Shown here: positions 4,248-64,000 of the stretch, piece after piece | How the letters are laid out: each line of letters begins with the position of its first letter | Position numbering within the stretch: position 1 is the first letter of the stretch | Assembly: GCA_977017645.1 (NCBI GenBank) | Contig: OZ360231.1 | Coordinates: 8,184,001-8,248,000 of the forward strand | DNA length: 64,000 bases | Direction of reading: 5' to 3' | Source of the DNA: Torpedo marmorata | Lineage: Eukaryota | Notes under the pieces: model-generated | What the model saw: the letters and a program-made list of their open reading frames with translations, nothing else | The model's database searches: none | What the model was told of the DNA's origin: nothing | Translations under genes and position numbers: made by a program

Positions 4248-6902
4248 AGGATTAGGTATGGATGAATGGACAATGTGGGACAAAGGGCCCATATCTTTGT
4301 TCTATGATGCCACGACTCCATGGTAAACCCTGGAGAGAGTGCAATGTGCTCCTTATCTTGATAGTTACCTTTTTCTAACAGGACACATCAACAATATTGT
4401 TCGTGCTAATGCCTCCTTTGGAAATTTTCCAATAAACTTTGCCAACTATGACCAATGGAATTACATTAAAATCTAGGTGTATAGCTCAATTTTCTTCGCA
4501 ATGTGAAACATGAGTGACTCACTGACATCAGCAGTAGAGCTTGGAGAGGTACTCTGAAGATACTTCGGTGGAATCCTCTGCTTTGAGAAGATCACTGCAC
4601 TAAATATGTTCTTGCCAAAACCAATATCCCCAGTAATTAAGGCAATAATTCTGAACATTATCTCCAGTGGAATGGATACATGTCTGACTTTCGACTCTCC
4701 AAACAAGTTTATAATCCTAACTCAATCATGCCCAGACAATCCACAGCAGTCAAAGCAAATGTAACAAAAATGCACTGAAGGCATACCTCAATAAGCTGTA
4801 CCTCCACATGCTGGGAAACACTGGCCACCAAATGATGTGAATGGAGTTAAAATGTCCATCAAGTCTGCGTCATAGAAAGCCTTCTCACTCTAGAAAAGGA
4901 AGAAAATGTATAAAGGGAAACGGTTCATAGCTCGTATGCAGTGCTTCCACTTGGAAATGTCTGCAATGTGCAGAAGGATCTTTAGTTGGAGGAGCAGATT
5001 AAATTATTCAAATGCAAATGACTTTCAGTTACATTTCCCACACAATGCTTTCAGTAAAAATGAAGATAAAATTAAAGTCAACAAATAAAAATGTGCCTAA
5101 ATAACTCACGAGAATTGTTGCAGGAGGAATGCAATATGAAGGAGACAGAGGTTTGTCCAGTAGCTGCAATACTCCTTGCTCACATGATATTTCTCTAGTT
5201 TACTGAATATATTAGTAAGAGAGGCAGTTCAGTAAAAAGTAGTAAAATTAGTAGCATTATATATAATGTTATAGTTTCTAAAAAGATGTAGTAACCGTAT
5301 TTGGCAATCAGGTTCACTCAACAAAAACTCAGAATTTACAGTTAACTGGTCGGGAAAATATGTAGTACATTTCATATCTTCAGAACATCTCAATGCAATT
5401 TATCACCGCAGATATACAGTATTTTGTTTGGAAAGTGCCAAGCTTTGTAATATCGGAAAGATTTAGTAATGTGTAATGTTTATAAGAAGTTCAAAACTAC
5501 AAATTTTCGACATCCACCACAGTGTAATTATTAAAATATATATACCGGTAGTTACCGGTATATTACAAAGTACTTAATTTCACACAGAAATAAAAAACAG
5601 CAATCTTGAATCAAAATTTACATTAATCAAATGTAAAATAAAATTCAGAAAACAACATTGAATTGAATACAGCTTAACATTAGACAGCTTTAAGAATCAA
5701 TACTTTTTTGATTTTGCAACAAACAAAATACAGCTATGCAAATTAATGATACAAGGTTAATTTGGTTAATCAAAACCAGCAGAAGTGAGCCTGTAATGAC
5801 TTTTAAATTACATGTACATATTTTTACACTAATACCACTTTTATTGATCATTACACAATCAAAACTGAAGCATCAGGTCTCCAAAAACATGAAATCATTA
5901 TTTGGAATATCTACTATTTCATGACTGGCATTTTTATTGCTATTTCTTTAGTTTTGAAGCTGATAAGTCAAAACCAAAATAAAATAATACAGCAACAGTC
6001 TTACAGCAGAGACATGAATATGTCTTCACAACATTCCTGTGCTCATAAATAGGACAAGACCCACAAACCAGAAAAGCAGCTGTAAGGATGATTTACTGTG
6101 GATGGATGATCCTGTAATTGGCTGGAAAACCTGCAACCTCCATCAATGGTGCATTACAGCCTTATGCCAGGAGTGCAAAAATAAAGTATACATTATATTT
6201 GAATGGAGCATGCTAGAAACACTAATCTTTTGACTGCTATAAGAAAAGAGAAACAGATCTATAATGCTTACTCTGTTTCCTTTTCCATAGATGTTGCCTG
6301 ATCTGAGGGTTTCAAGCATTTTCTGTTTTTATTTACCAGCATCTGCAGCTTTTTGATTTAATGTCATTACATATAATTTAATGTCATTATTTTTAATCAC
6401 AATTACTTCATTCATTTATCTTATCCTCTTCCAAATAATTGGTACTGATTCTGACAAACAAGAGATTCCTAGATCAGTGATTGTCACAAGATTATTTGAC
6501 TGTGGTGTAAGTGTAAGCCATTCATTCTTCCCCCAGCACCCCCAACTCACATGCACTTTCTACTATAACCACTGGTTAGCTCACAGGAGTGGAAAAACAA
6601 CTTTCAACAATTAAATCACGCAACATATCTCAAAGCAGAAATCAAAACTGGAGCCTACTGCTGTGTATTACTGAGTACAATGACCTTGTAGGGCTTTCAG
6701 TCCCATATAATAAAGGTAATCTTTCTGTGTACAGTCTTTAAAATCATAGAAATCATATGATAACCACAAGATCCATAGATTCAATTAGTTTCAACATTCA
6801 AATTTGAAAATAAAAGTCCTGGTGCAGGATAATAAAGTTACATACAAATATAACGATTAATTGTCCAACCAAAATTTAAGAAAACTGAGATATGCAGAAT
6901 CA

Positions 6903-6908
6903 TTTATT
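6903..6908 (-). promoter_or_regulatory. Candidate polyadenylation signal (AATAAA) for SETDB2
   Basis: tttatt on the + strand about 125 nt past the stop. The AT-rich context makes a chance match possible. Confidence 0.4.
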
Positions 6909-7030: not shown

Positions 7031-7148
7031 TCACACTATAATATTCCTGCATTTGATGGATCCACAAAAACATGGAATTTCTTCTTCAGGTATGGTCCCC
7101 ACTGAGTAATTGTAGTCCCATGTCAACTCTGATCCTGCTTTAATATGC
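7031..7148 (-). CDS. SETDB2: SETDB2 last coding exon (118 nt incl. TGA): HIKAGSELTWDYNYSVGTIPEEEIPCFCGSIKCRNIIV*
   Basis: ELTWDY and post-SET CxCxxxxC. Acceptor tgtttttgttag. Confidence 0.96.
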
Positions 7149-7419
7149 CTAACAAAAACAGGAACACAGAATAAGTCTTTCAAATAAGGAACTTTGTTAA
7201 AACTGCTTTCAAACAACTGCAATTAATAGACAATTGCACATGATAAGGATCAAACACATGAATAAATATGGTTTGTACTATACTTATTAAACAAGTCCAG
7301 TTCAATATTGGTGTGTAACAAGTGAATGAATCCTGTGTCAGCTGTTTTTCAAAATTCTAATTAAAAATATTACATTTATCAAATAAATATTTTGTATTTG
7401 TCTGTTAATATTCACTTAC

Positions 7420-7508
7420 CTATTGGTAAAAAATGCCACCCAGGGGAAATTCTTATTGTGAGTATCCACAAAAACACTTTGCACCATGAGATTTGGATCA
7501 CAGCTGTG
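7420..7508 (-). CDS. SETDB2: SETDB2 coding exon K (89 nt, phase 0-2): [30 protein letters not shown]
   Basis: Completes the NHSCxPN motif. Acceptor gcttacag, donor gtaagt. Confidence 0.96.
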
Positions 7509-7885
7509 CTGTAAGCAAACAGATTATGAATACAAGATCAGAATGCACAAAAATAATATTTCATGGAACATAAGAAATTGTAAGATGACAAAATACAAGT
7601 TCTGTAACGTGACCAGGAACCAGGACCAATACAGTCAATGTATTGGAAAAGAGATGAAGACGAGTGCCCAGAGTGCGCCTGAAATAAGGACTGTTCTACG
7701 TATCCCAAAGAGAGTCAAACACAACTTGGATCTATGCAGGATCCCTGAACTATACCTTTGATTTGGAGGATGTGAGCAGGAGACGTTATTCAATGTGAAA
7801 ATGAGTTCAGTCAGGAAAGGATGGGATGAAGGTGAACTGAATGAGCCCTCAGAAACAGTGGCAAGCCTTTAGATCAAGAATTATG

Positions 7886-8629
7886 TTTTAGATGTAATAG
7901 AGGAAGGTTCTACATGGTTTTGTCCAAAGATATATGATTTTTGGTTGAAAGTTAAAAACTTTTTAGATAAAGTATTAAATATTACACTTCCATTGAACCC
8001 TATGATATTTTTGTTTGGAGATATTAAAAGAATTAGTATTAAGATGAAATTAAATATGTATCAAATAGAATTTTTGCGAATCGCTTTAGCTGTTTCTAAG
8101 AAATGTATTGCTATTACGTGGAAATCTGATGTAGATTTAGGGTTAGAGAGATGGCATGCAGAACTTCGTTCATGTATACCACTTGAAAAAATTACTTATA
8201 ATTTACGTAATAAATACCATTTCTTTTTGAAAATATGGAACCCATATATAAAAGCTGTTGGTTTAAGGATTTGAAGATCTCTGGACATCGGATCTGACTG
8301 GCGAACTATCCTCCACAATAAAATCAGTTTATAGATGTACTTTTTAGACTGACATTCTCCTTACTCTATTTTTTTCTTTCTTTTTTAAAATTATTTTAGT
8401 AGATTAGTATGGGCTCCCCGTGCTTTCGGCGTGGTTGTCGGCTGGGCCGTACAGTGTACTGTGCGACTCAACTGCACCTCATCGGTGAGCCGGTGTGAGT
8501 CAGGGGGGTGGGAGGGTTAGGGAGGGGAGGGAGGGAGGGGGGTGAAAATGTATCACATGTATTTTGATAATTTTATACTTTAATTTATATACTTCGTGAT
8601 TTAAAATTTTAAATAAAATATTTAAAAAA
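7886..8629 (+). mobile_element. L1/Tx1-clade LINE 3' fragment carrying an extra 94-bp GC-rich segment in its 3' UTR
   Basis: ORF 7945..8274, A tail, short TSD aattatg (7879-7885, 8630-8636). Confidence 0.9.
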
Positions 8630-9299
8630 AATTATGGGATGGAGGGAAATACAGCAAGTTGATCTGCACAAATGAAGTGGATGAGCTACAAAAGTTATAT
8701 AAACATAAGATTATCCACATTGGAACAGCCAATCTTAATTCTAGCATTCTATAAATGAAAGCCGAACATAAAGAAATAGGAATGGGAAAATTCCAATCCA
8801 TGAAAATTCATTAAAATGTGAATGATGAGAGACTGACCAGCCATGAACAGCTTCTCCTTGATCTAAATTTCAGAAGTGTTTCTGTCAAAAGTTTAGCCCT
8901 AAACTCGGCAGTGACAAAACTCTCCAAATATTTGACACCATCTATATAGTGAGCCAAATGAAAAATATATCCATTTATCTAAGAAAAATATTAACCGACA
9001 AGGCCGGTTTTAAGGGTAAATGCAACAAGATAGTTTTTTTAGGAAAAAAAAGTGGGATATATCAGGAATACCAAAATTTTGACATCCTGGCAACAAACAA
9101 GGAGTTTGAAACCCAATTTCTACTGGTGGAGAACAGGTGCTGAGAGAGCAAAGAACGCAGCTACTGGAACATGAAATTCTCATACCAAGTGAAAAAAATT
9201 GGAAGCAGTAAATGAACAACACACCAGTCTTATTTGTCACCCTTAAACTGCCCCACTAATAATTCAATCTCAGAGCAACATTCGCCTGAATCCAGCAGA

Positions 9300-9490
9300 G
9301 ACATTCCCTTTGTCTTATCCATCCGCTGCTTTCTCTGCAATTTGAAGCTAATTTTATTCTGTCTTTCCAGGTTCTGATAAAGGGCCTTCAACCTAAACCA
9401 CTAACTCAGTTTCTCTCTCCACAGATGTTGCCTGACTTGCTGAGTGCACGCAGCATTTTCTGTTTTTGTGTTAATTTCCAGCATTTGTTG
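9300..9490 (+). mobile_element. Decayed Penelope-like 3' repeat
   Basis: ctgataaagggccttcaacct...cacagatgttgcctgacttgctgagt...cagcattttctg, similar to 54445-54545. Confidence 0.6.
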
Positions 9491-9707
9491 TTTTTTTTAA
9501 AAAGTTTTAAACAATTAAAACTATTTAAGTGAAGGAATATGTTAAATTTTCCATTAGAGTTCATTGCTCATTTTCCCTTTGCCTCTTTGGTCATAATATA
9601 CATCACCTACTTTTACAGTAAAGGGAAATTCATAAAACTTGCAAAGAAATATAAGAAAGCTGACAAATATTTTACAGTTATTACTTCCTGCAATATTGGT
9701 TACTTAC

Positions 9708-9997
9708 GTTAAGAAAACGTCCTATGTTTCCTTCTTCCATAGCATCCAAAAAGTAATAGCAATCCCTTAGGTCATCACCTTCCCAGAATCTGTGTAATTT
9801 TGGCACCAGTTCCTTGTGATCGTTACTTTGGACCAATTTGTTTCCTCTCTTTGTATTTTCATTGTCTGTTTTATTTTCTTGTTTTTCTGTTTCTTGTTGT
9901 ATTTGTTGAGACAACAATGAACTCTCAAAAATGTTTCCTCTGAAAGGGACAGAATGGCTTTTCCCATAATCAATGCTGTTTCTGTTTTCTGAAACTC
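9708..9997 (-). CDS. SETDB2: SETDB2 coding exon J (290 nt, phase 1-0): ...CYYFLDAMEEGNIGRFLN
   Basis: Lies inside ORF 9681..10037 and carries the SET-C motif LDA..EGN.GRFLN. Acceptor ttttatag, donor gtaagt. Confidence 0.92.
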
Positions 9998-10749
9998 CTA
10001 TAAAATTTAAAATGTATACAATTTGTAAGTCAGGCAAATTTCTAATGTTACACTTAAACTATCAGCTAGGGCATATTTAGTTGCGATCGTAGCTGCACCG
10101 AGGTCAACTTCAATACCTGTTCAGTGGTCACCTGAAAACAAAAGCAAAATGTTTCACAGTACATCTATAAGGATACAGAGAAAGGAAATGGTTTCAAGGA
10201 GAAGACAGAGTTTCATCTTCATAATAACTATGTGGTGATACTGACACAAGCCAAAGTAGATTGGTGAGAATGAGGTTGGAGTTTTACTCCGTGTATTGGT
10301 TTCAATACATCTATTCGAAGTCCAGTCTGCCAGCTATACCATTTCAGTGTTATGATGACATGGAGGCCTCTACCCAGAGTAAATTTCACGCCTTTGATAC
10401 CCTTAATTCTCTTATGTGGTGCTTAAGTGAGTCGCGCTACTCATCAACTGACACATTACATTAGGTGGTTACCCATGACTGTTGACTGATATGAAATGCC
10501 AGTCTATACCAAAGACTCCCTAGACTACTTGTTTCCAAGTGTGTACTACTGTGTCACCATAATGCTGGGTCCATGTTCATTTGCTGTTAATGGACAAGTC
10601 TGAGGTGTTGATAAGATCTTTATTTCAATTCTAATGCACCCCTGGATGTTTATGAGGAGGATATTGGAGGGTTTATCATACTGGTGGCATCTCTTGTCAT
10701 TTCAAATTTTGACATTCTGGTCATTCCTTTTTATTATTGTCATGCTATT

Positions 10750-10990
10750 TTGCAACTGTTTCAGAGGGCGGCTGAGAATCAACCTCAATGTTATAGGTCT
10801 GGAGCCAGAGGTAATAATGGGAAGTTTACTTCTTTAAAAGACATCAATGAACCAGTTTGTTTAAATGTCAATCCAACAATCTCAAGGACACCATGAAGCT
10901 CTTGACATTAATTTTTTAATTTTAAAATAAACTATATTCAAATTCATCATATGCTGGGATTTTAACTAGCAAATTATTCGTCCTGTAATA
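10750..10990 (-). mobile_element. Old SINE fragment, LF-SINE/L2-tail-like
   Basis: ggtctggag...aaagacatcaatgaaccag resembles, from memory, the reverse complement of the LF-SINE-like core. Heavily diverged. Confidence 0.35.
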
Positions 10991-11684
10991 TAACCACCAT
11001 CCCATCTCCTAACTTGCACACAGTTAAGGGATTACATAAATAGGTAAAAGCAAATCACAGCCAAGTTGGGGGGAAGACGATGTGACATTGAATAACTTGG
11101 TTCTGGCAAGCTTGGAATGCAAAGCATTGCACATTGCTCCTCTAACGACGGGATGTGGTTAAGGATTACAATAATGAAAGAGGCTGTATGCTGTAATTTG
11201 TTTAAAAAACTCATGTGGTTAATGTCATACAGAAAGCATGCAGAGAAAATGGCAAACAATCTTTTGAGCTGGTGCATGCATCTTTATTCTTGAGAATAGA
11301 CTTCCTGTGCCCTGCACATCTAGTTCAGATGCAGTAGGCGAAGAACCTGCCAAAACATTTTGATCCGAGTAACAACAATGGATAAGAACTGCACGGTGTA
11401 TGGAATTGATAATTAACACTGGAACCAAACAAACAGTCTGAAATTGGTCATTATTACTGAAATCAGTTTACTACGGCGACTGTGAAGAAAGGTCATAAAC
11501 TGAAATGTTAACTTTCTCTTCATGGATGCTGCCTAATTTTGATCTCTCTCACAAAAGGTTATGAAAGCCAAGTCACTTAATACTTTTGAGAAGATGGACT
11601 TCTTACACAAAAGTCAGTTGTACTGAATGCCAAAGCAGACTCAAAAGGATTGAATAATTCTCCTGCTCCTTTCTTCTACGTTCT

Positions 11685-13240
11685 GAATCAGAATCAGAAT
11701 CAATTGTCATGAACAAGTCATGAAATTCAGTGTTTTGCGGCAGCATCATAGTGCAATTAACATTCATATTAACCATCTAACGACATTACTATAAAAAATT
11801 ATAAACAATAGTGCACGAAAAGTAAGGCAGTGTCTTTGGTTCATTGATTATTCAGGAATCTGATGGCAGCGGGGAAGAAGCTGTCCTTGTGCCGTTGAGT
11901 GCTCGTCTTTAGGCTCCTGTACCTTTTTCCCGATGGAAGCAGAGTGAAGAGGGCATGGCCTGGGTGGTGGGGGTCTTTGAGGATAGAGGCTGCTTTTTTA
12001 AGACACCGCCTCATGTAGATGTCCTCGATGGAGTGGAGTTTGGTGCCTGTGATGTCACAGGCCGAGTTAACAACCCTCTGGAGTTTACTTTTGTCCTGGG
12101 AGTTGGCGCCTCCATACCAGGCAGTGATGCAACCAGCCAGAATGCTCTCCACGGTACACCTGTAGAAGTTTACGAGAGTCTTTGGTGACATACCGAATCT
12201 CCGCAGACACCTCACAAAGTAGAGCCGCTGACGAGCCTTCTTTGTGATTGCATCAACGTGGATGCTCCAGGACAGATCCTCGGAGATGTTGACACCCAGG
12301 AATTTGAAGTTCTTGACGCTCTCCACGACTGAGCCTTCGATGAGGACTGGGTCGTGTTTCCCTGACTTCCTCCTGAAGTCCACAATCATTTCCTTGATTT
12401 TTCTGACGTTGAGCTCAAGGTTGTTGCCATTACACCATTCAACGAGCTGATCTATCTCCCTCCTGTACGCTTCCTCATTGCCGTTTGTGATTCTGCCGAC
12501 AATTGTGGTGTCATCGGCAAACTTGTAGATGGCATTGGAATTGTGCCTGGCCACACAGTCATGAGTGTATAACGAGTAGAGCAGTGGACTAAGCACGCAT
12601 CCTTGGGGTGCGCCTGTGTTGATAATCAGTGAGGAGGAGACGTTGTTTCCAATTCGTACTGACTGTGGTCTTCCGATGAGAAAGTCAAGGATCCAGTTGC
12701 AGAGGGGGGTACAGAGGCCTAGAGTTTGTAGCTTCTTGACCAGCACTGAGGGAATAATGGTATTGAAGGCCGAGCTGTAGTCGATGAAGAGCAGCCGTAT
12801 GTATGAATTGCTGTTTTCGAGGTGATCCAGAGCTGAGTGGAGAGCCAGCGATATTGCATCTGCTGTGGAGCGATTGTGGCGATAGGCGAATTGCAGTGGG
12901 TCCAGATCTTTGCTTAGGTATGTGTTAATTCTGGCCATGACCAGCCTCTCAAAGCATTTCATTACAGTAGAAGTTAGTGTTACTGGGTGGTAGTCGTTGA
13001 GGCAGCCCACACTACTCTTCTTGGGTACCGGGATGATTGATGCCCTTTTGAAGCAGGTGGGAACCTCTGACTGCCACAATGAGAGGTTGAAAATGTCCGT
13101 GTACACTCCGGCTAGTTGGTTGGCGCAGATTTTCAATACCCTGCCAGGTACGCTGTCAGGGCCTGACGCCTTGCGAGGGTTCACCCTCTTGAATGATGTT
13201 CTGACGTCGCCCTCAGAGACAGATATCACAGGGTCCTCAG
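11685..13240 (-). mobile_element. Rex1/Babar-type LINE, 5'-truncated, RT ORF still open
   Basis: ORF 11841..13277 with [25 protein letters not shown] and KFADD. (ATTCTG)n 3' tail, seen as gaatcagaatcagaat on +. Confidence 0.93.
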
Positions 13241-13679
13241 TTTTATTAGTAAGACCAAACAGCAACACAAGCAACAAACCACTTTTTAAAATAAAACTAC
13301 TAGCCCTAATGGATAATCTCTACTCATAGTCGTTGCTGATGTATCCAAAATGTCACAATTAAAGAAAATATAATTAAACCAGGTGTGATGTGCTGTTTGA
13401 AGAGCTAACTTTGCATATCTGCAGATATTATGAACCTGATTTAAGTAAATGGCAGTGCTTATTTAAGTGTAAAATATACCTTGCACATTTAATCTATATA
13501 TATGTGCCTATCTAACAGATCCACAAGGTGAAGGAAAATATTTTGCGTAGCTTCCCCGCAATAGATGGCTGCTGTGGACCATGTAGGTGCTGGCAACATT
13601 AATTGTTCAAAAGTACTGACAGCCTCGTAAGATCCAGGCTTTAGTCCTTTAATGAATTATATATTTTTTCTTGAAATAC

Positions 13680-13827
13680 CTTTATCACTGTTGATCAGTT
13701 GATTATCTCTCAGAGTCTTGCACTTTGGTGAAGATAGCAGATGTGTTTTGGGGAGTCGTTTGTGTCGCTCTGATGATGATTCACTTTCATCCTCCTCTGA
13801 ACTACTAGGCATTACCAAAATCTGGCC
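13680..13827 (-). CDS. SETDB2: SETDB2 coding exon I (148 nt, phase 0-1): GQILVMPSSSEEDESESSSERHKRLPKTHLLSSPKCKTLRDNQLINSDK
   Basis: Acceptor tttttgtccttcag, donor gtattt, open frame. Phases link exons H and J. Confidence 0.83.
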
Positions 13828-14116
13828 CTGAAGGACAAAAATACAAGCCGATTTTTCTAGCCAGAGATTTCAATGAAACTTGTTTACTTGCTGATATTCA
13901 CAAATAGAAAAAGTAAACAGAATCCTGAACTCTCAGAAAGAATAAAAAATCTTAGTGGATTAAAGCAGTTTTGCAAAGAAAGAGCCCTAATTTAAGTCGA
14001 CATAGTTCTGCCAGATATACAGACGTGATATTTTGAGGGATGAGGCATTGCAAGAGTAAAACAAAATCATACACTTCTCTATAAAATTATTGTTCTACAA
14101 AACCACATTGCCTTGG

Positions 14117-14868
14117 AACATACACAGTAAATGGTAGGGCACTGAGGAGTGCGGAGGAACAGAGAGATCTGGGAATACAGATACATAATTCCCTGAAAGT
14201 GGCGTCACAGGTAGACAGGGTTGTAAAGAAAGCTTTTGGCATCTTGGCCTCCATAAATCAAAGTATTGAGTACAGGAGTTGGGATGTTATGGTGAGGTTG
14301 TATAAGACATTGGTGAGGCCAAATTTGGAGTATTGTGTGCAGTTCTGGTCGCCAAACTACAGGAAGGATATCAGTAAGATTGAAAGAGTGCAGAGAAGAT
14401 TTACTAGGATGTTGCCGGGTCTTCAGGAGTTGAGTTACAGGGAAAGATTAAACAGGTTAGGACTTTATTCCTTGGAGCGTAGAAGAATGAGGGGAGATTT
14501 GATAGAGGTTTACAAAATTATGAGAGGTAGAGACAGAGTAAATGCGAGTCGGCTCTTTCCACTTAGATTAGGAGAGATAAATACAAGAGGACATGGCTTT
14601 AGGGTGAAAGGGGAAAGGTTTAGGGGGAACATTAGGGGGAACTTCTTCACTCAGAGAGTGGTGGGGGTGTGGAACGAGCTGCCATCTGACGTGGTAAATG
14701 CGGGCTCACTCTTAAGTTTTAAGAATAAATTGGATAGATACATGGATGGGAGAGGTGTGGAGGGTTATGGAATGGGTGCAGGTCAGTGGGACTAGCGGAA
14801 TGATGTTTCGGCACAGGCTAGAAGGGCCGAATGGCTTGTTTTCTATGCTGTAGTGTTTTATGGTTCTA
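14117..14868 (+). mobile_element. CR1-type LINE 3' end
   Basis: ORF 14199..14795 (LYKTLVRPNLEYCVQFWSP, RGDLIEVYKI, FFTQRVV..WNELP). Tail gggccgaatggc...ttttatggttctat. Confidence 0.93.
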
Positions 14869-15097
14869 TCTGCAAACTTCTGAAGGATTATATGTCATAA
14901 GTGAATTTTGTTACTGCATAAACATTCTTTTTAGAGAAGTGAGGAAGAGATCAGAGTGACACATAGTTTTCGTCTCTTTGCAACTCTGTGGGAATGAGGA
15001 AAATGTTGCAACTTCATATATTCATATACTGTATAATTACTTTCCAGCATTCCTAAGTTTTGCTTTACATTATAACATAATTTTAATTGTTTTAGGC

Positions 15098-15813
15098 AAA
15101 CAAGAAAGAATGCAGATGCTGGAAAACTGGAGAAACACACAAAAAGCTGAGGAACTCAGCGGGTCAGGCAGCATCTATGGAAGGCAATAGATAGTCAATG
15201 TTTCATGCCATAATCCTTCATCAGGAATAACAACTAAAAGGCAGAAGTCTGAATAAAAGGGTGTGAAAGAAACAGGGAGGATCACGTGCTGGCAGTTGAT
15301 AGGTGAATACAAGTGGGAGGGGAAGAAATGGGGGAAAAATAAACTATGTGATGGGAGGAAGAGGCAGAGGGTAAAGGAAGATGGATGCTGCAGCAGAGCG
15401 AAGGGGCTCAAACCGCTCCCCCCCCACCGCTCTTCCAGATCCATCTGACACCATTCCTCCTTCTTTTCCCTCCCCTCTCTACTACCTAATCACTCAAACT
15501 TTCCTTCCTCTAGCTCCCCACTCTTTCTCTTCATTCCATGACCTAGTGAGCCCCTATCAGAGTGCATCTACCTTTACCCTCTGCCTTTCTCCCATTACTT
15601 CCAAACTTTTTTGCCATTTCTTCTCCCTCTCACCTGTATTCATCGATCACCTGCCAGCCCATGCTCCTCCTCCCCCTCCCCTCCCTTTTATTTGGGTTTC
15701 TGACCTATTCTTGCTATACCTGATGAAAGGTTATGGCCTGAAATGTTGACCATGTATTGCCTTCCATGGATGCTGTTTGACGTGCGGAGTTTCTCCAGCA
15801 TTTTGTGTGTTGC
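15098..15813. mobile_element. Two Penelope-like 3' repeats in inverted arrangement
   Basis: Left arm (minus) and right arm (plus) both carry CTGATGA...GAAA followed by ttccat(a/g)gatgctg...cagc. Purine-rich and pyrimidine-rich mirror halves. Confidence 0.75.
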
Positions 15814-16694
15814 TTTCATTGCTTTATTCTCGTGTTTCTTTATTATTTATTAGAAGTGGGGAAAAGTTAGTTAAAATGTTAGGTTTTACTGACAGTTAAA
15901 TCTTATGGTTTTGAAGCTCCTAGTTTGTGTTATTAACTATGGAAACTGTAATCAAATTTGTGCTGATCTTTGCCTGTGATTGAGATAGATATATGCATTT
16001 GGGCTTTTGGGTTCTAATAAGTAAAGAAGGTTCAGTAGCACCAACATACAGATGTAGGTAAGAGTCAGAGACATACAGCATACAGTTTTTTCTCTCTTAC
16101 TTCCAATAGGGGATTTACACAACTGCTTTCATTCAAGAGATCTGTTCCATTTACCTTGTTTCTTACAAATCTGATGTTATTAATGCAATTATATTAGAGG
16201 GCCAAAAATGGACCAAAATACGTTAAAACAGGAATAATATTTGACATAACAGTTGACCCTGCTGCCTTTCTCTCCTTTCAGAACATAAGGTGCTATACCT
16301 TAATACTCTTTCTTTCCTCTAATGTCCAACATTTTAATGCACTCTATGCTGCTGAACCATGGTTCAGCACAGTGAAATGTGTTCAAGCATAAATTTAACA
16401 TCTAAAATTTGAAGACATGCCAGAATGATCAAATCTTCATTGGGAGAAAATATTTGCTTGCTTTTTGCATTTCATTTTGAATTAAAACTGTGTGCTTATT
16501 AAGGCTGTTATAAAATAAGCACACATCATTCAAAAAAAAAAGATCAGCAGAATGTCCTCCCAGTGGACCAGCTGGTTGAGTAACATGTGCTACTCAACTA
16601 ATACTGTACCACCAAAACAATTAATTGGAAATTATCAATTGAGTGAGTTTTATGTTATTTACTCAACAAAGCCTATTGAACGTTTTATTTTCAC

Positions 16695-16812
16695 CTGCTC
16701 CCGAAGCTTTCTTCGTCGAGTCTGAAGCACAGCAGTCTTAGTTTTAGGTCGTTCAATTGATGTCGATTCAGAGTGATGCAAATCGAACTTTTTAACTCTG
16801 GGTTTTCTCCTT
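16695..16812 (-). CDS. SETDB2: SETDB2 coding exon H (118 nt, phase 2-0): RRKPRVKKFDLHHSESTSIERPKTKTAVLQTRRRKLREQ
   Basis: P.(S/T)KTA..Q motif of the SETDB2 insertion. Acceptor ctcttataacag, donor gtgaaa. Phases fit. Confidence 0.87.
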
Positions 16813-17359
16813 CTGTTATAAGAGATTGTAAGGAGCAGTTACATCAACAAAAGGAATTCAAGTCAAATGAGCTTTAGTGGAGTTTTAACATTAGTGAGTA
16901 ACCATAGTGTTACGTACTTGTATAAAAAACAATTACCGGTAAGTGGAAAAAATGTTGCATGAAAAAGTATGGCCACTGACACTCCAGAAATGGCCTCCGC
17001 AAGTGTACTACAAGAGAACAAGTTCAAACAGTCCCATTTCCTCTCCCACGCCCTTAATTGTTCTTTTATTCCTTCTAAAACACATATTCCTTTTTCTCAC
17101 AGACACACTTACATAGAACCTCATTCACTATCTTCCATCTCTTTTCTTTCCAACTTCCATCTGCCGTTGCCTTCACTAGCTCTCTCATTCTGCAATGCTG
17201 AAAATTGTTCTAGGTGACTTTTGGCTCATGTACCAAATGGCACCTTTCCCAGAAGAAGTAATTTACTGCAGTAAAAGCATTATTATTCAATATCCTTGGG
17301 GAATGCAGGGTGCTAACTTGTCAAATATGCCATCTCATCATGAGTTAAGTATGTTGTTA

Positions 17360-20300
17360 AACAAGAATGTCTGCAGATGCTGGGGTCATATGCAATGCAC
17401 AAAAATAACAAACGTGCGAGGTCATGTGATGCAGAGGAGCTGAGCAGAAGTGGATTCCTGGGCTCTCTCTACATCATTGATTTAAAACAAGATAAATATT
17501 GATTTTTTGAATTTAAAAGAGGAGAAGCGTTAGGAGAATGGGGAAAAAGGGTAGATCTCAACCCCTGGCAGTAGGAGGGTCTCCGAATTCAACGGATTCA
17601 ACAGGCGAGGCCCCACACGGGAGCAGGGACATGGAGCCCTCATTAATGGTACTGGAGAAGAGGAAGATGAAGGGGGAGTTGATGAGTATTTCCACGGACA
17701 CGGCGAAGGTCATTGGGGACCTGACTAGAAGGTTTGATAGAATAGAAACCTGGATAAAGGAGGTGCTGGACGTCGTAAAGGATTTCAAGGATTCGATGGG
17801 GGTTTTAACCTCCCGTGTGGAAAAGATGGAGGAAACAGCAGAGAATATACAAGAAAGGCTGGGGAGCCTGGAAAAAGATAAGAATAACTGGAGAAAATAA
17901 AAACAGGAGATCATGGATAAAATGGATCACATGGAGAACTTTAATAGAAAACATAACGTTAGAATTATTGGATTAAAAGAAGGGGCAGAGGGAAGAGACA
18001 CCGTGGAAATTTTTTAGAAATGGATACCAGAGGTTCTGGGGAAAGATCGTTTTAAAAACCCTCTGAAGGTGGAAAGAGCCCACCGGACCTTCGGCCCCCG
18101 GACCACGACTGGTTCTGGTGCGACTGTTGAGCTGCCGGGATCGGGAGGAGATCCTCCGTGCGGCGGCAGCACGCGCCAGGGAAACGGGCGGGCCCCTGGA
18201 GATCGGAATGGACAAAAATGTCTTATTCCAGGACCTAAGCGCGGCCCTAGTGCGGCGTCGGAAGGAATTCGACGCCGTAAAGAAACAGCTGCGGGTAAGG
18301 AACATATCTTACTCGATGCTCTACCCCGCGACGTTGAGGCTGGAGCCGTCGGAGGGCGGAAGAAGATTCTTTGCGACGTCCAGAGAGGCGGAGGACTTCG
18401 TCCGAGGTCTGCGGGAGAGGTCGTAGGAGTGGAACGGGAGACGAGAAAGGAGACAGCACAAGGACTGAAAGAATCGCGGAGGATATAAATAGACGTTGGG
18501 TAAAAGAAATGGGGTGTACCATGTGGTGTAAAAGGAGGGGGGGTTTGGATTATCGCACATTGAACCACAGGGGTGTATTTTATTATAAGAAAATGTAAAA
18601 ATATAAGGAGAGCCCAGGAAGGGCTGGGAAGTTATGGTAGGATGGGCACATAATGTACTTCAAATTAAGGGGGCTGATAGCGTCAGGAGAGGGGTTGTTT
18701 TGAAAAATGGCGCTGGAGAAAAGGGGAGGGAATTTCTTTTTGCCTTGCAATTTTTTTTCGCGGGCTTTTGGGGTTTCCTGATGACGTCACTGTCAGTGTA
18801 GGGGAAATACATGTGTTACCTTATAAGGGAGAATGCACACTGGGAAAGAAAAATGTGAAGAAAAAACATCTGGCGGAAGTAAATGAATTAGAACGAGAAA
18901 TTCTAGAATTGGAAAAAGAATATCAACAATCTGGCTCAAAGGGAAAATATCAAATTCTGGTAAATAAGAAGCTTAAGTACAACACTCTACAAACATATCA
19001 ATTGGAGAAAACCATTTTGAGATCTAGGCAAAAATATTATGAATTAGGCGAGAGGGCCCATACTTGTCTTGGCAATTGAAGGCAGAAGAGACATCGAGGA
19101 CAATTAATGTGATTCAGTTAGGATCAGACAAGATAACACACAACCGAAAAGAGATAAACGATACATTCAAGCAATTCTATACTGAGCTGTATAAATCAGT
19201 CACCTAAAGATTCAAATAAAATAGATGAATTTTTGTCCAAGATTGATTTGCCTAGATTGGATCAAGACGATCAGACGAAATTAGATTCCCCTTTTTCTAG
19301 AGAAGAGATTTAAAAAGCCTTGAGTACATTACAAGCTAATAAATCACCGGGGGAGGACGGTTTCCTGCCTGAGTTTTACAGAGAATTTAAAGAACTTTTG
19401 ATGCCTCTTATTATGGATATGATTAATCAGGCAGCGGAGACACGGACCCTCCCGGAGTCCTTTTCAACAGCTATTATTACGGTTATACCAAAAAAAGATA
19501 GAGATCCATTAAAACCGTCTTCATATAGACCTATTTCAATGCTAAATGCGGATTATAAGATAATAGCTAAGGCATTAGCTAATAGATTGTGATTATCTAC
19601 CAAAATTGATAAATTCGGATCAAGTCGGCTTCGTGAAGAGGAGACACTCTGCCAACAACCTGGGTAGATTATTTAGTATTATACATTTGGCACAATCCAA
19701 GATAGACCCGAGCATAGCCGTGTCTTTAGACGCGGAAAAGGCTTTTGATAGGCTGGAGTGGCCTTTTTTATTTCAAGTACTTGAAAAGTTTGGACTGGGA
19801 CAATCATTCGTCCAATGGGTAAAAACACTTTACCACAACCCTCGGGCTAAAATTATAACGAATGGGCAGATGTCGTCGACATTTTTATTGAATAGATCTA
19901 GTAGGCAGGGTTGTCCACTGTCTCCAGGACTCTTCGTATTAGCGATTGAACCATTGGCGGAGGCTGTCAGGAGGGATCCAGAGATAAAAGGATTCAAGGT
20001 GGACCAGACGGACCACAAGATAAATTTGTTTGCAGATGATGTATTGTTATAACTAACAGACCCAGCTGAGTCTTTAGCCAATTTACAGACTACACTGGAG
20101 GATTAGGGCATGGTTTCAGGATATAAAATAAATTTAGATAAAAGTGAAATCATGCCACTGATGAAATTTGACTATAAAAAGCTTCAACAAGAGAGTTGCT
20201 TTTAATGGCAACCGGAAGGCATTAAGTATTTAGGGATAAGGACGGATAATAATTTGCAGAATTTATATAAACTCAACTATCTTCCGATGCTTGGAAAGAT

Positions 20301-22125
20301 TGAGGACGATTTACTAAGATGGAGAAGCCTACCTATCACATTAGTGGGCAGGGTTAACTGTATCAAAATGATGGTGATGCCGAAACTGCAATTCCTTTTT
20401 CAATCTTTACCTATCCCTTTGCCAAAAACTTTTTTCAAAACACTTAATGGATATGTAAGACAGTTTATTTGGAATGGCAAGGTCTCCAGAGTCTCCATGG
20501 AAAAGCTGACGTGGGATTATAAATTGGGGGGCTTGCAACTACCAGATTTTAAGAAGTATTATTTAGCAGCTCAGTCGAGGTTTCTTTTGTTCTTTTTTGA
20601 AGAGGGTGATACACCTTCATGGGTTTAAATTGGACTGGATACTATAGGGGAGAAAATAGCTAAGGACTTTATTTACAAATGGAACACCAAGTTAATATCC
20701 AAAAGAACGAGCAACCCTATTCTGAAAGACCTGATTAAAATTTGGCAAGAAATCAATGAGTGTGTTGGGGTAAAAATTGGAATATCCCCCAAGACACCTC
20801 TATTTCTAAATGAGCTTATGCCCATGATTTTGGGTAATAAAATATGGAGAGTTTGGTATCAGAAGGGTGTTCAATATATTGAAGATTGCTTATGTCCTTT
20901 GAACAACTCAAAAATAAATATGATTTGTCTAATAAAACCTTTCACTGTTTTCTCCAATTAAGATCCTTCTTGCGAGAAAGATGGGGTCCTGCAATGACCC
21001 CACCTATAAGCAATGAGGTAGAACAGTTACTTCGACTGGGAAATGCATTCAAAATTATATCCAGAATATATTATGTACTCCAAAGTGAAAGCCCTAAGCC
21101 GGGTATACATGGATCGAGGGAGAGGTGGGAGTCGGACTTGGGTACAACAATTCATGAGCGTTGCTGGTTGGATTGGTGTAGGGACAGTATGACGACGGTT
21201 ATTAATGCTAGATATAGATTGGTTCAATATATTTCTTGCACCAACTATATCTCACACCACAAAAGTTGCACAGGTCAAAATCCGAAATATCGGAACTGTG
21301 TTTCAGATGTGGTGGGGAGGTTGGAACTTTCCTCCACTCGGTCCTGTGCAATGGTACGACCCTTTTGGTATGATATATCTAATATACTAACTAAAATTAC
21401 GGGGTGGCCTTTCCACTGGACCCGGAGTTGTATCTCCTGGGAAATTTAATGGACATAAGCTACAAATTATCCAAATTCCAAATTCAATTTGTGCTAGTTG
21501 TTTTGTCCGTAGCAAAAAAGTGTATTGCAGTCACTTGGAAGTCCGACTCCCCCCTTCAAATCACTCGGTGGTCAACAGAAATGCGGAGTTGTATTCCTAT
21601 GGAGAAAATTACATATAACCTCAGGAATAGATATGATACATTTGTAAAGATGTGGCAATCATACCTGGAGTATGTTGGGGTCCAGTTGTAATCTAAACCC
21701 TGAAGTATAATATAATATAGAAATATTTAACGGTGTGGCATCTCCAGAAAGATTGAAAAATTAATGTAAGTACTAACGGTACGTTCAGTTTTTCATTTTC
21801 TTTCTTTTCTTTTGTACATTTTATTTTCTTTTTCAGTTGGGGAGAAGGAGGGAAAGTTCAATGATAATGTTGTATATAGTTGTGAATCGCATATTTCCTG
21901 TTTATATCTTGAACTTTGAAAATTAAAAAATTAAATATTCAAAAAAAACAAACAAACGTGCTGGAGAAACCCAGCAGGTGACGCAGCATCTAGAGGAAGT
22001 AAAGGATAACCAACATTTTGGGGCTGAGCCCTTTGTCAGGTATAAACAAAAACAGGCAGGCGCCAGAATAGAAAGGTGGAGTGAAGGGGAGGAGGAGAGA
22101 AGAGGAGGGAGGAAGGGGAGGATTC
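17360..22125 (-). mobile_element. Penelope-like 3' repeat split by the 17418-21950 LINE
   Basis: tctgcagatgctgg... before the TSD continues as tggagaaacccagcagg...cagcatct after it. Confidence 0.65.
17418..21950 (+). mobile_element. L1/Tx1-clade LINE with both ends, ORF1 and ORF2 remnants; endonuclease region deleted
   Basis: ORF1 pieces 17538..17900 and 18118..18426 (FQDLSAALVRRRKEF, YPATLR). RT motifs SLDAEKAFDR, RQGCPLSP, LFADD. TSD aacaaacgtgc (17407-17417, 21951-21961). Confidence 0.92.
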
Positions 22126-22171
22126 ATGTATTCATTCAGTTTTCATTCAATTAATGATACTAAAGGTTATG

Positions 22172-24863: not shown

Positions 24864-24879
24864 ATCGCTATTGATAAGT

Positions 24880-45300: not shown

Positions 45301-45312
45301 AGCTAATAATAA

Positions 45313-46042: not shown

Positions 46043-46114
46043 CTGCTGTGTCAGGTGAAATCGAATTCTTGTAGATTCCAGCTTTGTTGACCAAATTTAA
46101 AGCCTTCAAATATT
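46043..46114 (-). CDS. SETDB2: SETDB2 coding exon B (72 nt, phase 1-1): (E)YLKALNLVNKAGIYKNSISPDTA
   Basis: Acceptor ttttctctttctgcag, donor gtagag. Similar to human EYIQAMILVNEA. Too short for the ORF track. Confidence 0.88.
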
Positions 46115-47131: not shown

Positions 47132-49584
47132 AATGTAGATTACAAGATAATGGCAAAAATTTTAGCAAATAGGATGGCTAATTATTTACCAGATTTAATT
47201 CATGTAGACCAAGCTGGTTTTATTAAGAATAGATATTCAAAAGATAATATAGCTAGATTAATTAGCTTAATTAATTTACAAAAAAAGAAAGAAGATTTAC
47301 CATTAGTATTAACGTTAGATGCCGAAAAGGCTTTTGATAGACTAGAGTGGAATTTTTTATTTAAGGTGTTGGAGAAATTTGGTTTTGGAATTACGTTTAT
47401 TAATTGGATTAAAACTATATATAAAGAACCATCTGCCAAAGTGGTTACAAATGGACAGATTTCTTCAAGATTTCCTTTGACTCGATCTACTAGACAAGGA
47501 TGTCCTTTGTTACCAGCGTTATTTATTTTGGCGATAGAACCTCTGGCAGAATTAGTTAGAAAAGATCCTAAAATAGTTGGTATTAAAGTTGGAATGGAGG
47601 AACATAAAATTAGTTTATTTGCAAACGATGTATTGATATATATGATAAAATCTACTACATCTTTAGTACAATTATCTGCGTTATTGAGAGAATATGGGGA
47701 AATATCTGGATATAAAATTAATTCTGATAAAAGTGAAATTATGGCATTATCACAAGGGGATTATAGTAAGTGTAAAGAAATTACACAATTTAAATGGGCA
47801 AAGGAAGGAATTAAGTATTTGGGAATAAGAATTGATACAAAATTGGCTAATTTATATAAATTAAATTATTTACCATTATTTGTGAAAATAAAAAAGGATT
47901 TAGAAAATTGGAAAGATACCTATAACTTTAATGGGAAGAGTAAATTGTATTAAAATGAATATTTTTCCAAGAATTCAATACCTTTTCCAATCAATTCCTT
48001 ATGAGATTCCTCAAAATTTTAAAAAAGATTTAAATTTAATTATTAGAAAATTTTTATGGAAAGGAAAGTTAGCATGAGTAGGTATGGAAAAATTAACTTG
48101 GAATTATGAAATGGGAGGTTTACAACTTCCTAATTTTCAAAATTATTATAAAGCAGCTCAATTGAAATTTGTTAATGAACTTTTTGATTCAACCAAATCT
48201 TCTGCTTGGATTAAAATAGAATTAAATAATATAGGAGAAGATTTTAAAGAAGTAGTTATTTATAAATGGGATTCTAAATTAATATCAATAAGAAAGAAAA
48301 ACTCTCCTATTCTTAAACATTTGTTGGAAATATGGAATAAGACGGATAAGGAAATAGGAGGAAAAGGAATGATTTCTTCAAGGATGCCTTTATATCAAAA
48401 TCATCTTATTCCATTTACTATTAATAATCAATTATTTAAAATTTGGTTTCAAAAAGGAATTAAGAAAATAAATGATTGTTTTGAAGCTGGGAAATTTATT
48501 ACTTTCCAAAGAATGAAAGATAAATTTAATATATTAGATAATACACTTTTTTCTTATTATCAAATTAGAGCTTTTCTGATTGAGAAATTAGGTTATGCTT
48601 AGATCTTACCAGGACAGAACGAATTAGAATTATTACTTACTAAAGGAGATGTAAACAAATTTATTTCTCAAATGTATAAATTGTTTCAGAGGAAAATCCC
48701 TAAAGTAGGAATTCATAAATCAAGATTAAAATGGGAATTAGATTTGAACGTAACAATAGATGAAAATCATTGGAAAGAATTATGTAAATTAAGTATGACG
48801 AAGATTATTAATGTTAGATATAGATTAGTACAATACAATTTTTTTCATCAATTATATTTAACACCTAAAAAATTAAAGAAATTTAACCCGACATTATCAG
48901 ATTTATGTTTCAGATGTAATAAAGAGGAAGGTTCTTTTGTACATTCTACATAGTTTTGTCCAAAAGTCTACGATTTTTGGTTGAAAGTTAAAAATTTTTT
49001 AGATAAAGTATTTAAGATTATATTCCCGATAGATCCTATGATATTTTTGTTTGGAGATATTAAAAAATTTAGTATTAAGATGAAATTAAATATGTATCAA
49101 ATAGAATTTTTGCGAATTGTTTTAGCTGTTTCAAAGAAATGCATTGCTATTACTTGGAAATCTGATGTTGATTTAGGGTTAGAAAGATGGCATGCAGAAC
49201 TTCGTTCATGTATACCACTTGAAAAAATTACTTATAATTTACGGGATAAATACCATTTCTTTTTAAAAATATGGAGCCCATATATGAAAGCTGTCGGTTT
49301 AAGGATTTGAAAATCTCTGGACAATGGATCTACTGGCTACCCGACCTCCATAATAGAATTAGTTTATAGATGTATTTATTAGATTGACATTCTCCTTATC
49401 TTATCTTTTTCTTTTCTATTTCTTCCTTTTTTTTATTATTTTATTAGATTAGTGGGGTTGGGAGGGTTGGGGAGGGGAGGGTGGGAGGGGGGGGTTGAAA
49501 ATGTATCACAAGTATTTTGATAATTTTATATTTTATTCTATGTATTTTGTGATTTAAAATTTTAAATAAAATATTTTTTTTAAA
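47132..49584 (+). mobile_element. L1/Tx1-clade LINE, 5'-truncated at the RT start
   Basis: ORFs 47117..49310. The catalytic motif reads FAND. TSD aat(g/t)acatcattccaa (47116-47131, 49585-49600). Confidence 0.93.
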
Positions 49585-50134
49585 AATTACATCATTCCAA
49601 TGAACCTACACTTAAATATTTCTACACAAGTATACATGTACATTCCACAGTTTATTCTTATTATTCTTTAAATAGATGTTGATGGAAGTGAAAAAAGCAA
49701 TGAGATTCAAGGAAACATCAAATGAAAGTTTATGAAGAACAAAAGTATTGTGAAGTATGAAAATATCTGAGAGGTTTGATAGTTAAATTAGATGTGTGCT
49801 TTTGCTCAGCTGCAGGATGATTGTCCAGCAGCCAAGAAAACTGCACAACATCAACGCTGCACAGTTGTAAGCAGGCTGCAGAACCTGGGCCAGTATTTAG
49901 GGTAATCAAAACATAACTTAATTAGTTTACTACATTATTTAGATTCAAAGAAATGGCTTCTGAAATATGCCAAAAACTATGTGCCAGCAAGTATGAAAGT
50001 CTGTGGATAAATGCAAATTCTTTGTTATTTAAAAAAAAACTACAACCAACTTCCAGTTCTAAATTCTAAGTTACACACATTAGAAAGTTACTGAAATCGT
50101 GAATTTGGGAAAAATAACTCAGTAAATCTCTTAC

Positions 50135-50260
50135 CTTGATTGTTTGCTGAACCATTGGCAATTTTCTTTTCAAGGCAGTTTAATACATTATTCAGTTGCT
50201 CAAAGATGTGCTCCACGCTCCCAGAAGCTTGCATTTTATTCCAAAATAATTTTGCTTTTT
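50135..50260 (-). CDS. SETDB2: SETDB2 coding exon A (126 nt, phase 1-1): (E)KAKLFWNKMQASGSVEHIFEQLNNVLNCLEKKIANGSANNQ
   Basis: Acceptor tttcctcag, donor gtaag. Resembles the human N-terminus AKTFWMELEDDGKVDFIFEQVQNVLQSLKQKIKDGSATNK (from memory). Confidence 0.9.
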
Positions 50261-50766
50261 CTGAGGAAATCAAGACCATTGCAGTAGGTCATTGGGCCCT
50301 TGAGCCTTTAACTTGTCCTGCCATTCTCCCCTGGTCCAATTCCTCCCCACCTACATCCGCGACACCTCACATGCCCTCCATCTCCTCAATGACTTCAGAT
50401 TCCCTGAACCGGACCGCATCATCTTCACCATGGATGTCCAATCCCTTTATACCTCTATCCCCCACACAGAAGGTCTGAAAGCACTTCGCTTCTTCCTGGA
50501 CCAAAGACCCGACCAGTCACCCTCTACCACCACCCTCCTCCGCCTGGAAGAACTTGTCCTCACTCTCAATAACTTCTCCTTCAACTCATCCCACTTCCTC
50601 CAAATCAAAGGAGCAGCCATAGGTACCCGCATGCCTGCCTGTTTGTGGGCTTTGTGGAGCAATCCATGCTGCAAGCCTACACAGGCAAGACCCCTCATCT
50701 CTTCCTCCGTTATATCGACGACTACATCGGGGCTGCCTCATGCACCCGCGATGAGCTTGTCAACTT

Positions 50767-61800: not shown

Positions 61801-64000
61801 TTAATCCAATTAATAAATGTATTTCCAAAACCGAATTTTTCCAGTACCTTAAATAAATAATTCCACTCTAATCTATCAAAAGCCTTTTCGGCATCTAATG
61901 TTAATACTAATGCCAGTTTCTCTCTCTTTTGTGCCACGTTTATTAAACTAATTAATCTAGCGATATTATCTTTTGAATATCTGTTCTTAATAAAACCTGT
62001 TTGATCTACAAGAACTAAATCTGGTAAATACTTAGCCACTCTATTTGCTAAAATTTTCGCCATTATTTTATAGTCCACATTTAACAACGAAATTTGTCTA
62101 TATGATTCTGTTTTCAACAAGTCTATCTTTTTTAGGTATAACTGTTATTATTGCATTTGAAAAGGTTTCCGGTAGAGAATGAGTTTCCGTTATTTGTTTT
62201 AACACTTCCATATAAGGAGGTATCAATAAGTCCTTAAACTTCTTATAAAATTCTGATGGGAAACCATCCTCCCCCGGAGATTTCCCACTTGTTAAAGAAC
62301 TAAGAACCTCATTAACTTCTCTCATCGTAAATGGTGAATCTAAAGATTTTTTACTAAGTGTATTTAACCTAGGCATCTTAATTTTGGATAAAAATTTGTT
62401 AATTTTAGAATCATCTTTATCGACTTGAGATGTATATAAATTTAAATAAAAATCCTTGAAAGAATCATTTATTTCTCGCGGTTTATAAGTTACCGGTATT
62501 TTCTTAGAATTCTTTTTTATAGCCGTTCTAGTTCCAGAGGTTTGTTCTTTCTTAAATTGCCAGGCTAAAACTTTATGAGCTCTTTCTTCCAATTCATAAT
62601 ACCTTTGCTTAGTTCTTTCAATGAGTTTTTCCAATTTATATGTTTGTAACGTATTATAATATAATTTTTTCTCAATTAAATTTTTCTTCTTTTCTTCTGA
62701 TCTCTTTTTTTGTAAATCCTTCTCCAAAAACTCAATCTCCTTCTCCAAATTATCAAATTCCTGAATATTTTCCTTCTTAATTTTTGCTGAATAACTTATT
62801 ATCTGACATCTTAAATAAGCTTTCAAAGCATCCAAAATAATAAATTTATTCTCAATGGAATCAGAGTTAATCTGTAAGAATTCTTGGATTTCTCTTCTTA
62901 TATATTTACAAAAATCAGCTCTTTTTAGTAAAGAAGAATTAAACCTCCATCTATATATAATTTTTTCTTTTTCCGGAATTATGCATGACATTAATAAAGG
63001 CGAATGGTCAGAAATTAATCTTTCCTTATATTGTACTTGAGTCACCCTATGTTGTAATTCCGATGACAGTAAAAACATGTCTATTCTAGAATAAGAATCA
63101 TGTCTAGAAGAATAAAAAGAATAGTCTTTTTCTCTCGGATTCAACTTCCTCCAAATAACAATTAAATTCAAATCTTTCATCATAGTAAGAATTCTTTTAG
63201 CAGTTTTAGTTCTAATGATTGATTTGGATGTTTTATCCATTACTGGGTCTAAACAACAATTAAAATCTCCACCAATTAAAATATTATCGTTTGCTTCTAA
63301 CAAATGCATAAAGGAATCTTGAATAAATTGTTCATCTTGCGTATTTGGCACATATATATTCATGAGTCCACATTTCTGAATATATCTGACAGTTTATTAA
63401 GACATATCTTCCTGACCCATCAGTAACCACCGATTGTATTTTAAAGGGTAACTTCTTATTAATTAGTATAGCAACACCTTTAGCCTTAGAATTAAATGAA
63501 GATTCTACCACTTGACCAACCCATTCTCTTTTCAACTTCTGATGTTCTAAATTAGTCAGATGTGTCTCTTGTAATAAAGCTATGTCTACATTTAGCTTTT
63601 TGATGTATGCTAAAGTTTTCTTCCTTTTAATCGGATTATTGAGCCCATTTATATTAATACTGACTACATTTATTAATTTATTGTCCGCCATTGTTGATAT
63701 TTAATAACTCTCTCTCCATCGGATCCACCGGCTCCCCCTTCCACATTTGTAATCTATTTGACATCTCCTTAGAAAGAAAAAGAGAAAAGGATATAAAAAG
63801 AGAATAGAGAACTAAAGAACCCACTATATATAATACTGTTATATTTACACCAGTACTACCACCCTCCATTGCTCTGGAAGTGGCCCTCGCCACTAAAATG
63901 ACGCGCGACTAGGTACGAAGAAGACAAAAAGTCCACCTCCCTCCATACAGATTTCCAACAAAATTTGTTATCGTTTCTTCATCCAGCAACTTCAAGATCT
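58854..64000 (-). mobile_element. Long L1/Tx1-clade LINE (ORF2 complete but frameshifted, plus inter-ORF spacer); continues beyond the window
   Basis: ORFs 63332..63691 (NINGL, LQETH), 62098..63363, 61086..62120, 60219..60968 and 59900..60181. Closest relative by eye is the 29854-33616 copy. Confidence 0.95.
59018..59889 (-). mobile_element. Solo LTR (872 bp) inserted just after the LINE ORF2 stop codon
   Basis: TGTTA...TAACA inverted termini and 4-bp TSD gtgg (59014-59017, 59890-59893). No coding internal region. A second copy lies at 22726. Confidence 0.9.

Follow-up and report, generated by a model that had tools for sequence, protein, structure and literature searches.

How did a single stretch of a ray genome come to carry the same eight-letter word, TACCGGTA, at seven separate places? 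The stretch is a 64,000-nucleotide segment of Torpedo marmorata (assembly GCA_977017645.1, contig OZ360231.1, positions 8,184,001 to 8,248,000; hereafter the window), which lies in the gene SETDB2. An initial annotation of the window had listed at least seven copies, judged that fewer than one was expected, and proposed that they are excision footprints of a TA-targeting DNA transposon not present there. Exactly seven copies were found (at 5543, 5553, 16934, 23114, 25812, 37478, and 62491), and the low expectation held: 100 dinucleotide shuffles of the window gave a mean of 0.26 copies and a maximum of 2, never 7, and Markov models of order 1 to 3 predicted ~0.2. Among the 256 TA-NNNN-TA words in the window, TACCGGTA ranked first in over-representation. 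Genome-wide, 83,690 copies were counted (13.5 per Mb in 6.22 Gb) against a Markov expectation of 3.4–5.0 per Mb from two 200-kb samples, an enrichment of ~3–4-fold; the density in the window (109 per Mb) is far above the genomic value. The sequences flanking the seven sites share no similarity beyond an A at position −3 and a T at position +3 (A-3/T+3, the target signature). The evidence described here makes it very probable that TACCGGTA is the repair scar of Passer-type pogo DNA transposons.

The states before, during, and after such an event could be compared at a single TA in L1. Site 62491 lies in an L1 copy and is a 6-bp insertion relative to a second L1 copy in the window, in which the homologous TA (32680) is empty. 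A genome-wide search with the left flank of 62491 plus TACCG as the query returned eight matches at this L1 TA; three run into the element, four (including the window site itself) carry +6 scars, and one carries a +5 scar. In locus L160, a complete 939-bp element is bracketed by two TAs, compared with the single TA of the empty L1 copy, as required for target duplication, and its L1 flanks are 98–99% identical to those of the empty window copy. When paralogues with ≥75% identity were aligned, site 62491 faced a 6-nt gap in 10 of 18, with TACCGGTA carried by 3 of 18, and site 23114 faced a 6-nt gap in 12 of 15, with TACCGGTA in none. The in-window paralogue of 23114, near 59500, is also without the 6 bp, although CA replaces TA there. 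The initial annotation had identified two sites as 6-bp insertions relative to paralogues in the window, and both (62491 and 23114) were confirmed; 37478 is a third, relative to two other organisms (C and D, below). A single ancestral TA is thereby supported at three of the seven sites by shorter alleles in paralogues or orthologues. Beyond the window, 30 distinct sites were read, 26 with the target signature and 4 without it, and in two of the latter the word is intrinsic to a repeat. Paralogues were available for 12 of the 26 signature sites: six showed a clear +6, one was split between +6 and +5, one was mixed, one lay in a TA microsatellite, and three represented a shared site inside the element.

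A family of TA-flanked elements with CC...GG ends had been predicted as the source, and one with CCG...CGG ends was found. A search of the genome with the BrkDBD profile gave 13,207 candidates, and many of the 150 that were scored contain open frames of 456 aa. At the 30 loci that were read, the left end TA-CCGTATATTT was present in 25 and the opposite-strand end in 14; the eight copies with both ends are 1,799–2,183 bp long (1.6–4.0 kb in Passer). The transposase open reading frame (ORF) has 445 codons from the first ATG (400–500 aa in Passer), contains the domains PF09607 (BrkDBD), PF03221 (HTH_Tnp_Tc5), and PF03184 (DDE_1), all above cut-off, and has the DD35D catalytic triad that Passer requires. 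The element ends are alike over ~27 bp, and Passer is defined by terminal inverted repeats (TIRs) under 30 bp together with a TA target duplication. The three domains and DD35D are features of Passer in the available parts of the published accounts (PMC7386202, PMC9976928; all papers are cited here for such parts of their text), and the published Passer TIR oligonucleotide likewise begins TACCGTA (PMC9976928 supplement). Judged by its domains, triad, ends, and target features rather than by a tree, the source is most likely a Passer-type pogo element. The exact 12-mer end occurs 38,570 times in the genome, compared with 449 for the reversed control, and the element number is estimated from such ends at about 19,000, short derivatives included. 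For the 28 of 30 copies that could be aligned, the median distance was 3.0%, and one copy at 89% is also present; among the 15 that retain intact ORFs the median is 0.45%, and some are identical. This wide range, which includes near-identical intact copies, suggests that activity was long and continued up to very recent times. As the initial annotation had stated, the source element is not in the window; no copy of the L095 element was found there or in the 100 kb on either side, and local hopping from a nearby donor was rejected on this basis.

Other families were encountered in the same searches. A search that began with PF03184 yielded, in its top 30 loci, only CAG-ended (Tigger-like) ends where ends were found. 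Besides the main family, further CCG-ended families exist (L130, L151, and L155), and individual scars are not assignable to one family because several of them coexist. Distinct ends starting with CCG were noted at L130:6457 and 6839, L151:6224, L155:6682, and L132:2214, and L130 resembles a 380-bp miniature inverted-repeat transposable element. A non-autonomous Passer-type derivative of ~0.8–1.1 kb contains an internal TACCGGTA with the target signature (L109:1504, L113:1504, and L153:8482), which may be a scar that transposition subsequently multiplied.

The CC and GG of TACCGGTA match the terminal bases of the resident CCG...CGG elements, and a conventional cut-and-repair scheme would generate the word by two routes. 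The element would insert at a TA with A at −3 and T at +3, duplicating the TA. By analogy with the IS630/Tc1/mariner group, the transposase would then make a flush cut at each 3′ end and cleave 2 or 3 nt into the element at each 5′ end, as described for Tc1/mariner-type enzymes (PMC2170065), and terminal element bases would stay on both flanks after excision. With a 2-nt cut, fill-in of the CC + CC overhangs would give TA-CC-GG-TA; with a 3-nt cut, the CCG overhangs would anneal via their self-complementary CG and give the same TA-CCGG-TA. The net gain of 6 bp would be read as Tyr-Arg, Pro-Val, or Thr-Gly and never as a stop; because the scar is in frame and stop-free, an exon knocked out by insertion could be restored with two extra residues. 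Replacement of TA by TACCGGTA in silico closed none of 9,708 open reading contexts, and this result, together with Thr-Gly in SETDB2 and Pro-Val in L1 ORF2, bears out the frame-preserving +6 effect envisaged in the initial annotation. The spectrum of products was also surveyed. The 3+3 blunt product TACCGCGGTA was discounted, as only 70 examples with the signature occur in the genome and many of them share flanks. The +5 sub-pattern has 9,128 matches, a figure that includes background and ends of other families; a +5 product was seen directly at the L1 site (one of five scars), a probable one was found at L134, and +5 products look less common than +6. No signature excess was detected for +4, +3, or CG-only products in 864 kb. 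All of these searches pick up uniform products, and messy products or larger deletions are invisible to them. CAG-ended Tigger-like families are also abundant (L001–L030), yet TACATGTA is unenriched (20–25 per Mb versus 15–32 expected). The absence of enrichment, unlike the case of TACCGGTA, would fit the CG-annealing route, and it comes from samples rather than from a genome-wide count.

The flanking preference connects the word with the element. At element ends, position −3 is A in 21 of 25 cases and position +3 is T in 13 of 14 (34 of 39 together), and position −1 is mostly A or T rather than G. The A-3/T+3 preference agrees with a target of the type published for Passer, AAGTACTT (PMC9976928). 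All seven window sites have both bases, compared with 13.8% of the 5,206 TAs in the window (P about 1e-6), and the genome-wide proportions are 36,489 of 83,690 for TACCGGTA (43.6%) and 2,981 of 47,251 (6.3%) for a reversed control word. These data bear on the proposal that TACCGGTA is a selected or amplified motif, such as a protein-binding site or a repeat-borne word, and not a scar. Some copies are indeed intrinsic to repeats (L054/L065 and L109/L113/L153), and for three of the seven window sites an exon is no more than 150 bp away (P 0.02, counting the extra exon of a Narcine isoform at 45815-45904; the window was picked for its TACCGGTA excess, which inflates such P values). However, similarity among the seven flanks stops at A-3/T+3, three of the sites are 6 bp longer than their paralogues or orthologues, and insertions of one length recur in unrelated repeats. 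The motif proposal is largely refuted for the sites tested, and as a general explanation it is extremely unlikely.

The number of scars rests on a mixture estimate because many genomic copies of TACCGGTA are background or repeat-intrinsic. A two-class model gave 34,891–49,006 scars before correction for internal element sites; among the first 50 signature sites on C1, five are in or beside short element copies and represent the shared internal site. Very roughly, ~30,000–45,000 independent scars are estimated (not counted) in the genome, or roughly 2 per surviving element. CpG-decayed forms of the scar number 12,574, within the rough background estimate of 10,000–13,000, and therefore most scars look undecayed. 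Two individual signature sites have distinctive settings. L127:4421 borders a CpG island, and on the minus strand the start-like motif AAGATGGCCG follows 9 bp downstream, a position in line with a Passer bias to transcription starts. At L110:1504 (= L109:1938), on the minus strand, the scar is preceded by GTAAG, and the preferred target AAG-TA overlaps the splice-donor consensus GTAAGTA.

The placement of the window in SETDB2 and the identification of a scar in a coding exon are additions to the initial annotation. SETDB2 is encoded on the minus strand, the window holds the only close copy in the genome, and its conserved frame is open; an apparent stop near 46054 was dismissed, as no frame but the unusual one of a single Narcine isoform contains it. 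Among proteins, the nearest relative is that of Narcine bancroftii (92% over the exon with site 37478). The scar at this site begins 3 nt past the acceptor of the exon, which encodes the MBD and the start of pre-SET, and the sequence reads H-T-G-T-S-V-I-K. All 14 of the shark and ray SETDB2 proteins compared are without Thr-Gly and read x-T-S-V-I-K or x-A-S-V-I-K. Contigs from four runs (organisms A–D) were compared over 36850-37850 only. Organisms C and D are without exactly 6 bp at 37477, with 31 differences in ~920 letters and 39 in ~840, respectively. The contig of organism B has the 6 bp and departs from the genomic sequence at 37488; it is taken to be spliced because its loose end matches the upstream exon in 29 of 30 letters. 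The RNA label of that run is a guess, and organism B and the genome may represent one species. Organism A has the 6 bp with a synonymous ACC>ACG change inside the insert, and a separate 12-bp deletion in the same SETDB2 linker suggests that this region tolerates length change. The Thr-Gly insert is probably tolerated and nearly neutral, since the linker that holds it, ahead of the MBD, differs in length among relatives. In the proposed history, the exon would have been knocked out by insertion and restored by excision with Thr-Gly. A second coding scar was not found among 15 signature sites checked for spanning frames (11, plus 4 near DEAD-box exons); three long frames met at the 11 sites are without a Pfam match.

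The SETDB2 comparison also addresses whether the insertions are assembly artefacts, for example adapter or linker remnants, or arose by chance. The window was chosen for its excess and the evidence comes from contigs rather than raw reads, both of which leave room for such an origin. Nevertheless, the 37478 insert is present in organism A and organism B, whose runs are independent, and in one of the two it contains a substitution; an artefact would not follow the flank preference of the element, and chance is at odds with the shuffles. An artefactual or chance origin is so improbable as to be nearly negligible.

Several observations weigh against the interpretation of the seven sites as excision scars. 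Four of them (5543, 5553, 16934, and 25812) are without comparison sequence, no paralogues having been found in the sequence compared. At the L1 TA, two of the other +6 copies are 97.9% identical and may share one origin, and the contig of organism A reaches only 28 letters past the SETDB2 scar. About half of the genomic TACCGGTA copies are without the signature, and a similar share is background or intrinsic to repeats (e.g., L054/L065), which refines the footprint reading of the initial annotation. The local density exceeds what this reading accounts for, with 7 signature sites against 0.38 expected per 64 kb, or ~19 times the genomic value. Finally, the filled allele was seen at none of the seven window loci, and the empty, filled, and scarred states come from different L1 copies. 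The last point, and the apparent excess of scars over extant elements by ~2 to 1, would also suit a process in which the same transposases make the +6 change without a stable inserted stage, either by abortive integration or by insertion with immediate excision in germ cells, and the exon would then never have been null. Such a process does not readily accommodate the filled L1 copies, whose TA corresponds exactly to the one scarred in others, nor the retention of terminal bases of both ends, which is predicted if an integrated element is excised; when Passer is excised from a donor plasmid in cells, footprints of 0–4 bp are described (PMC9976928). It is accordingly regarded as very unlikely, and excision of stably inserted Passer-type elements is retained as the explanation of the scars.

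The surroundings of the window and a second genic region were used to gauge the local excess. The 200 kb flanking the window contain one site. Passer is reported to prefer expressed genes (PMC9976928), and in 799 kb around DEAD-box exons, 9 signature sites were found versus 4.7 expected (P 0.049); the first 400 kb contain 6 (2.3 expected) and the second 399 kb contain 3 (2.3 expected), no excess. Element ends in the same region number 18 versus 5.0 expected, although ends come in pairs. Genic enrichment is thus about 2-fold and not 19-fold. The enrichment of element ends equals or exceeds that of scars, which gives no support to a general rule that excisions in genes are favoured by selection. 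Within the window, the simplest reading of the pair at 5543 and 5553 is two separate events at adjoining TAs. The coordinates are collected in the table.

Table. Features of the window discussed in the text (positions in the 64,000-nucleotide stretch)
Feature	Positions	Strand	Remarks
SETDB2 coding-exon span in the window	7043..50261	-	tblastn of shark and ray proteins; further 5′ exons beyond the right end of the window
SETDB2 coding exon (MBD, start of pre-SET)	36886..37488	-	ends are where run X2 contigs leave the genomic sequence
Upstream SETDB2 exon	44806..44909	-	3′ end matches the loose end that the X2 contig has at 37488 in 29/30 letters
Presumed scar	5543..5550		unique DNA ~1.5 kb past the last matched SETDB2 coding exon; A-3, T+3
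Second TACCGGTA, 10 bp from the first	5553..5560		A-3, T+3
Presumed scar	16934..16941		SETDB2 intron, 123 bp from exon; A-3, T+3
Scar in interspersed repeat	23114..23121		+6 bp versus paralogues
Presumed scar	25812..25819		SETDB2 intron, 73 bp from exon; A-3, T+3
Coding scar	37478..37485	-	3 nt inside the SETDB2 MBD/pre-SET exon; codons ACC GGT (Thr-Gly)
Scar in L1 ORF2 copy	62491..62498	-	in frame, adds Pro-Val (KKI-PV-TYK versus KKI-TYK)
Empty TA, homologous position in another L1 copy	32680..32681		paralogue of site 62491

Other features of the locus were noted. PHD-finger (PHF11-like) exons flank SETDB2 on both sides (window 4770-4883; loci L033–L039 and L041–L046), and SETDB2 and PHF11 are fused in several database proteins from sharks and rays. 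The SETDB2 introns contain at least seven L1 pieces (28814-34642, 38492-43675, 47122-54589, and 57259-64000) that are 79–95% alike, some with inverted 5′ parts, and one piece has an open ORF2 frame of 1,151 codons (30088-33543, minus strand).

Footprints of this general type, and Passer itself, are already known, and the mechanism is textbook. The scars resemble those of the IS630/Tc1/mariner group in the TA duplication and in the retained terminal element bases; they differ in being inherited in tens of thousands, mostly as one +6 product, and in being fixed in a coding exon. Tc1 leaves TA-CATG-TA and Sleeping Beauty leaves TA-C(A/T)G-TA; the Sleeping Beauty type is a frame-shifting +5, whereas the scar here is +6. 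In maize, footprints that alter proteins were reportedly described by Schwarz-Sommer et al. in 1985. Inherited excision products diversify host sequence in rice as well, where perfect excisions made up only 8 of 94 and most others had deletions or filler (PMC4423477). In the ray, by contrast, a uniform stop-free product is very common, with the proviso that messy products escape the searches used, and the host is a vertebrate. For Passer, the ~19,000 copies estimated here compare with at most 294 in the published table of 21 species; cartilaginous fish are missing from that table and from the vertebrate classes listed in the 2020 account (PMC7386202), and the available parts of the published accounts do not describe inherited genomic scars (PMC7386202, PMC9976928). 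Searches of the open-access literature, outside of which most subscription papers lie, yielded no description of TACCGGTA as an inherited scar and none of an animal protein with a fixed footprint. What is new is the vertebrate scale, an identified source with empty, filled, and scarred states, and the fixed gain of two residues in SETDB2.

Excision is normally invisible to genome annotation, and the combination of a rare word with a target signature makes excisions countable. The scars could be placed relative to genes, and their ages estimated by comparing related species. This genome contains many intact Passer copies that are nearly identical, and the Passer family is used as a gene-transfer tool; the traces that such a tool leaves are predicted by the scar spectrum. 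In SETDB2, a transposon scar has become fixed in a vertebrate protein, a concrete instance of an idea long familiar from plant genetics; the effect on SETDB2 is probably small. A broader proposal, advanced tentatively and with somewhat less than even confidence, is that a burst of Passer acted as a genome-wide linker-scanning mutagen in the ray lineage; its stop-free +6 scar would rescue exons hit by insertion and may have placed two-residue inserts (Thr-Gly, Pro-Val, or Tyr-Arg) in tens to hundreds of proteins, with SETDB2 as the first example, and the burst would have left, in its scars, a countable record of excision that outnumbers the elements themselves.

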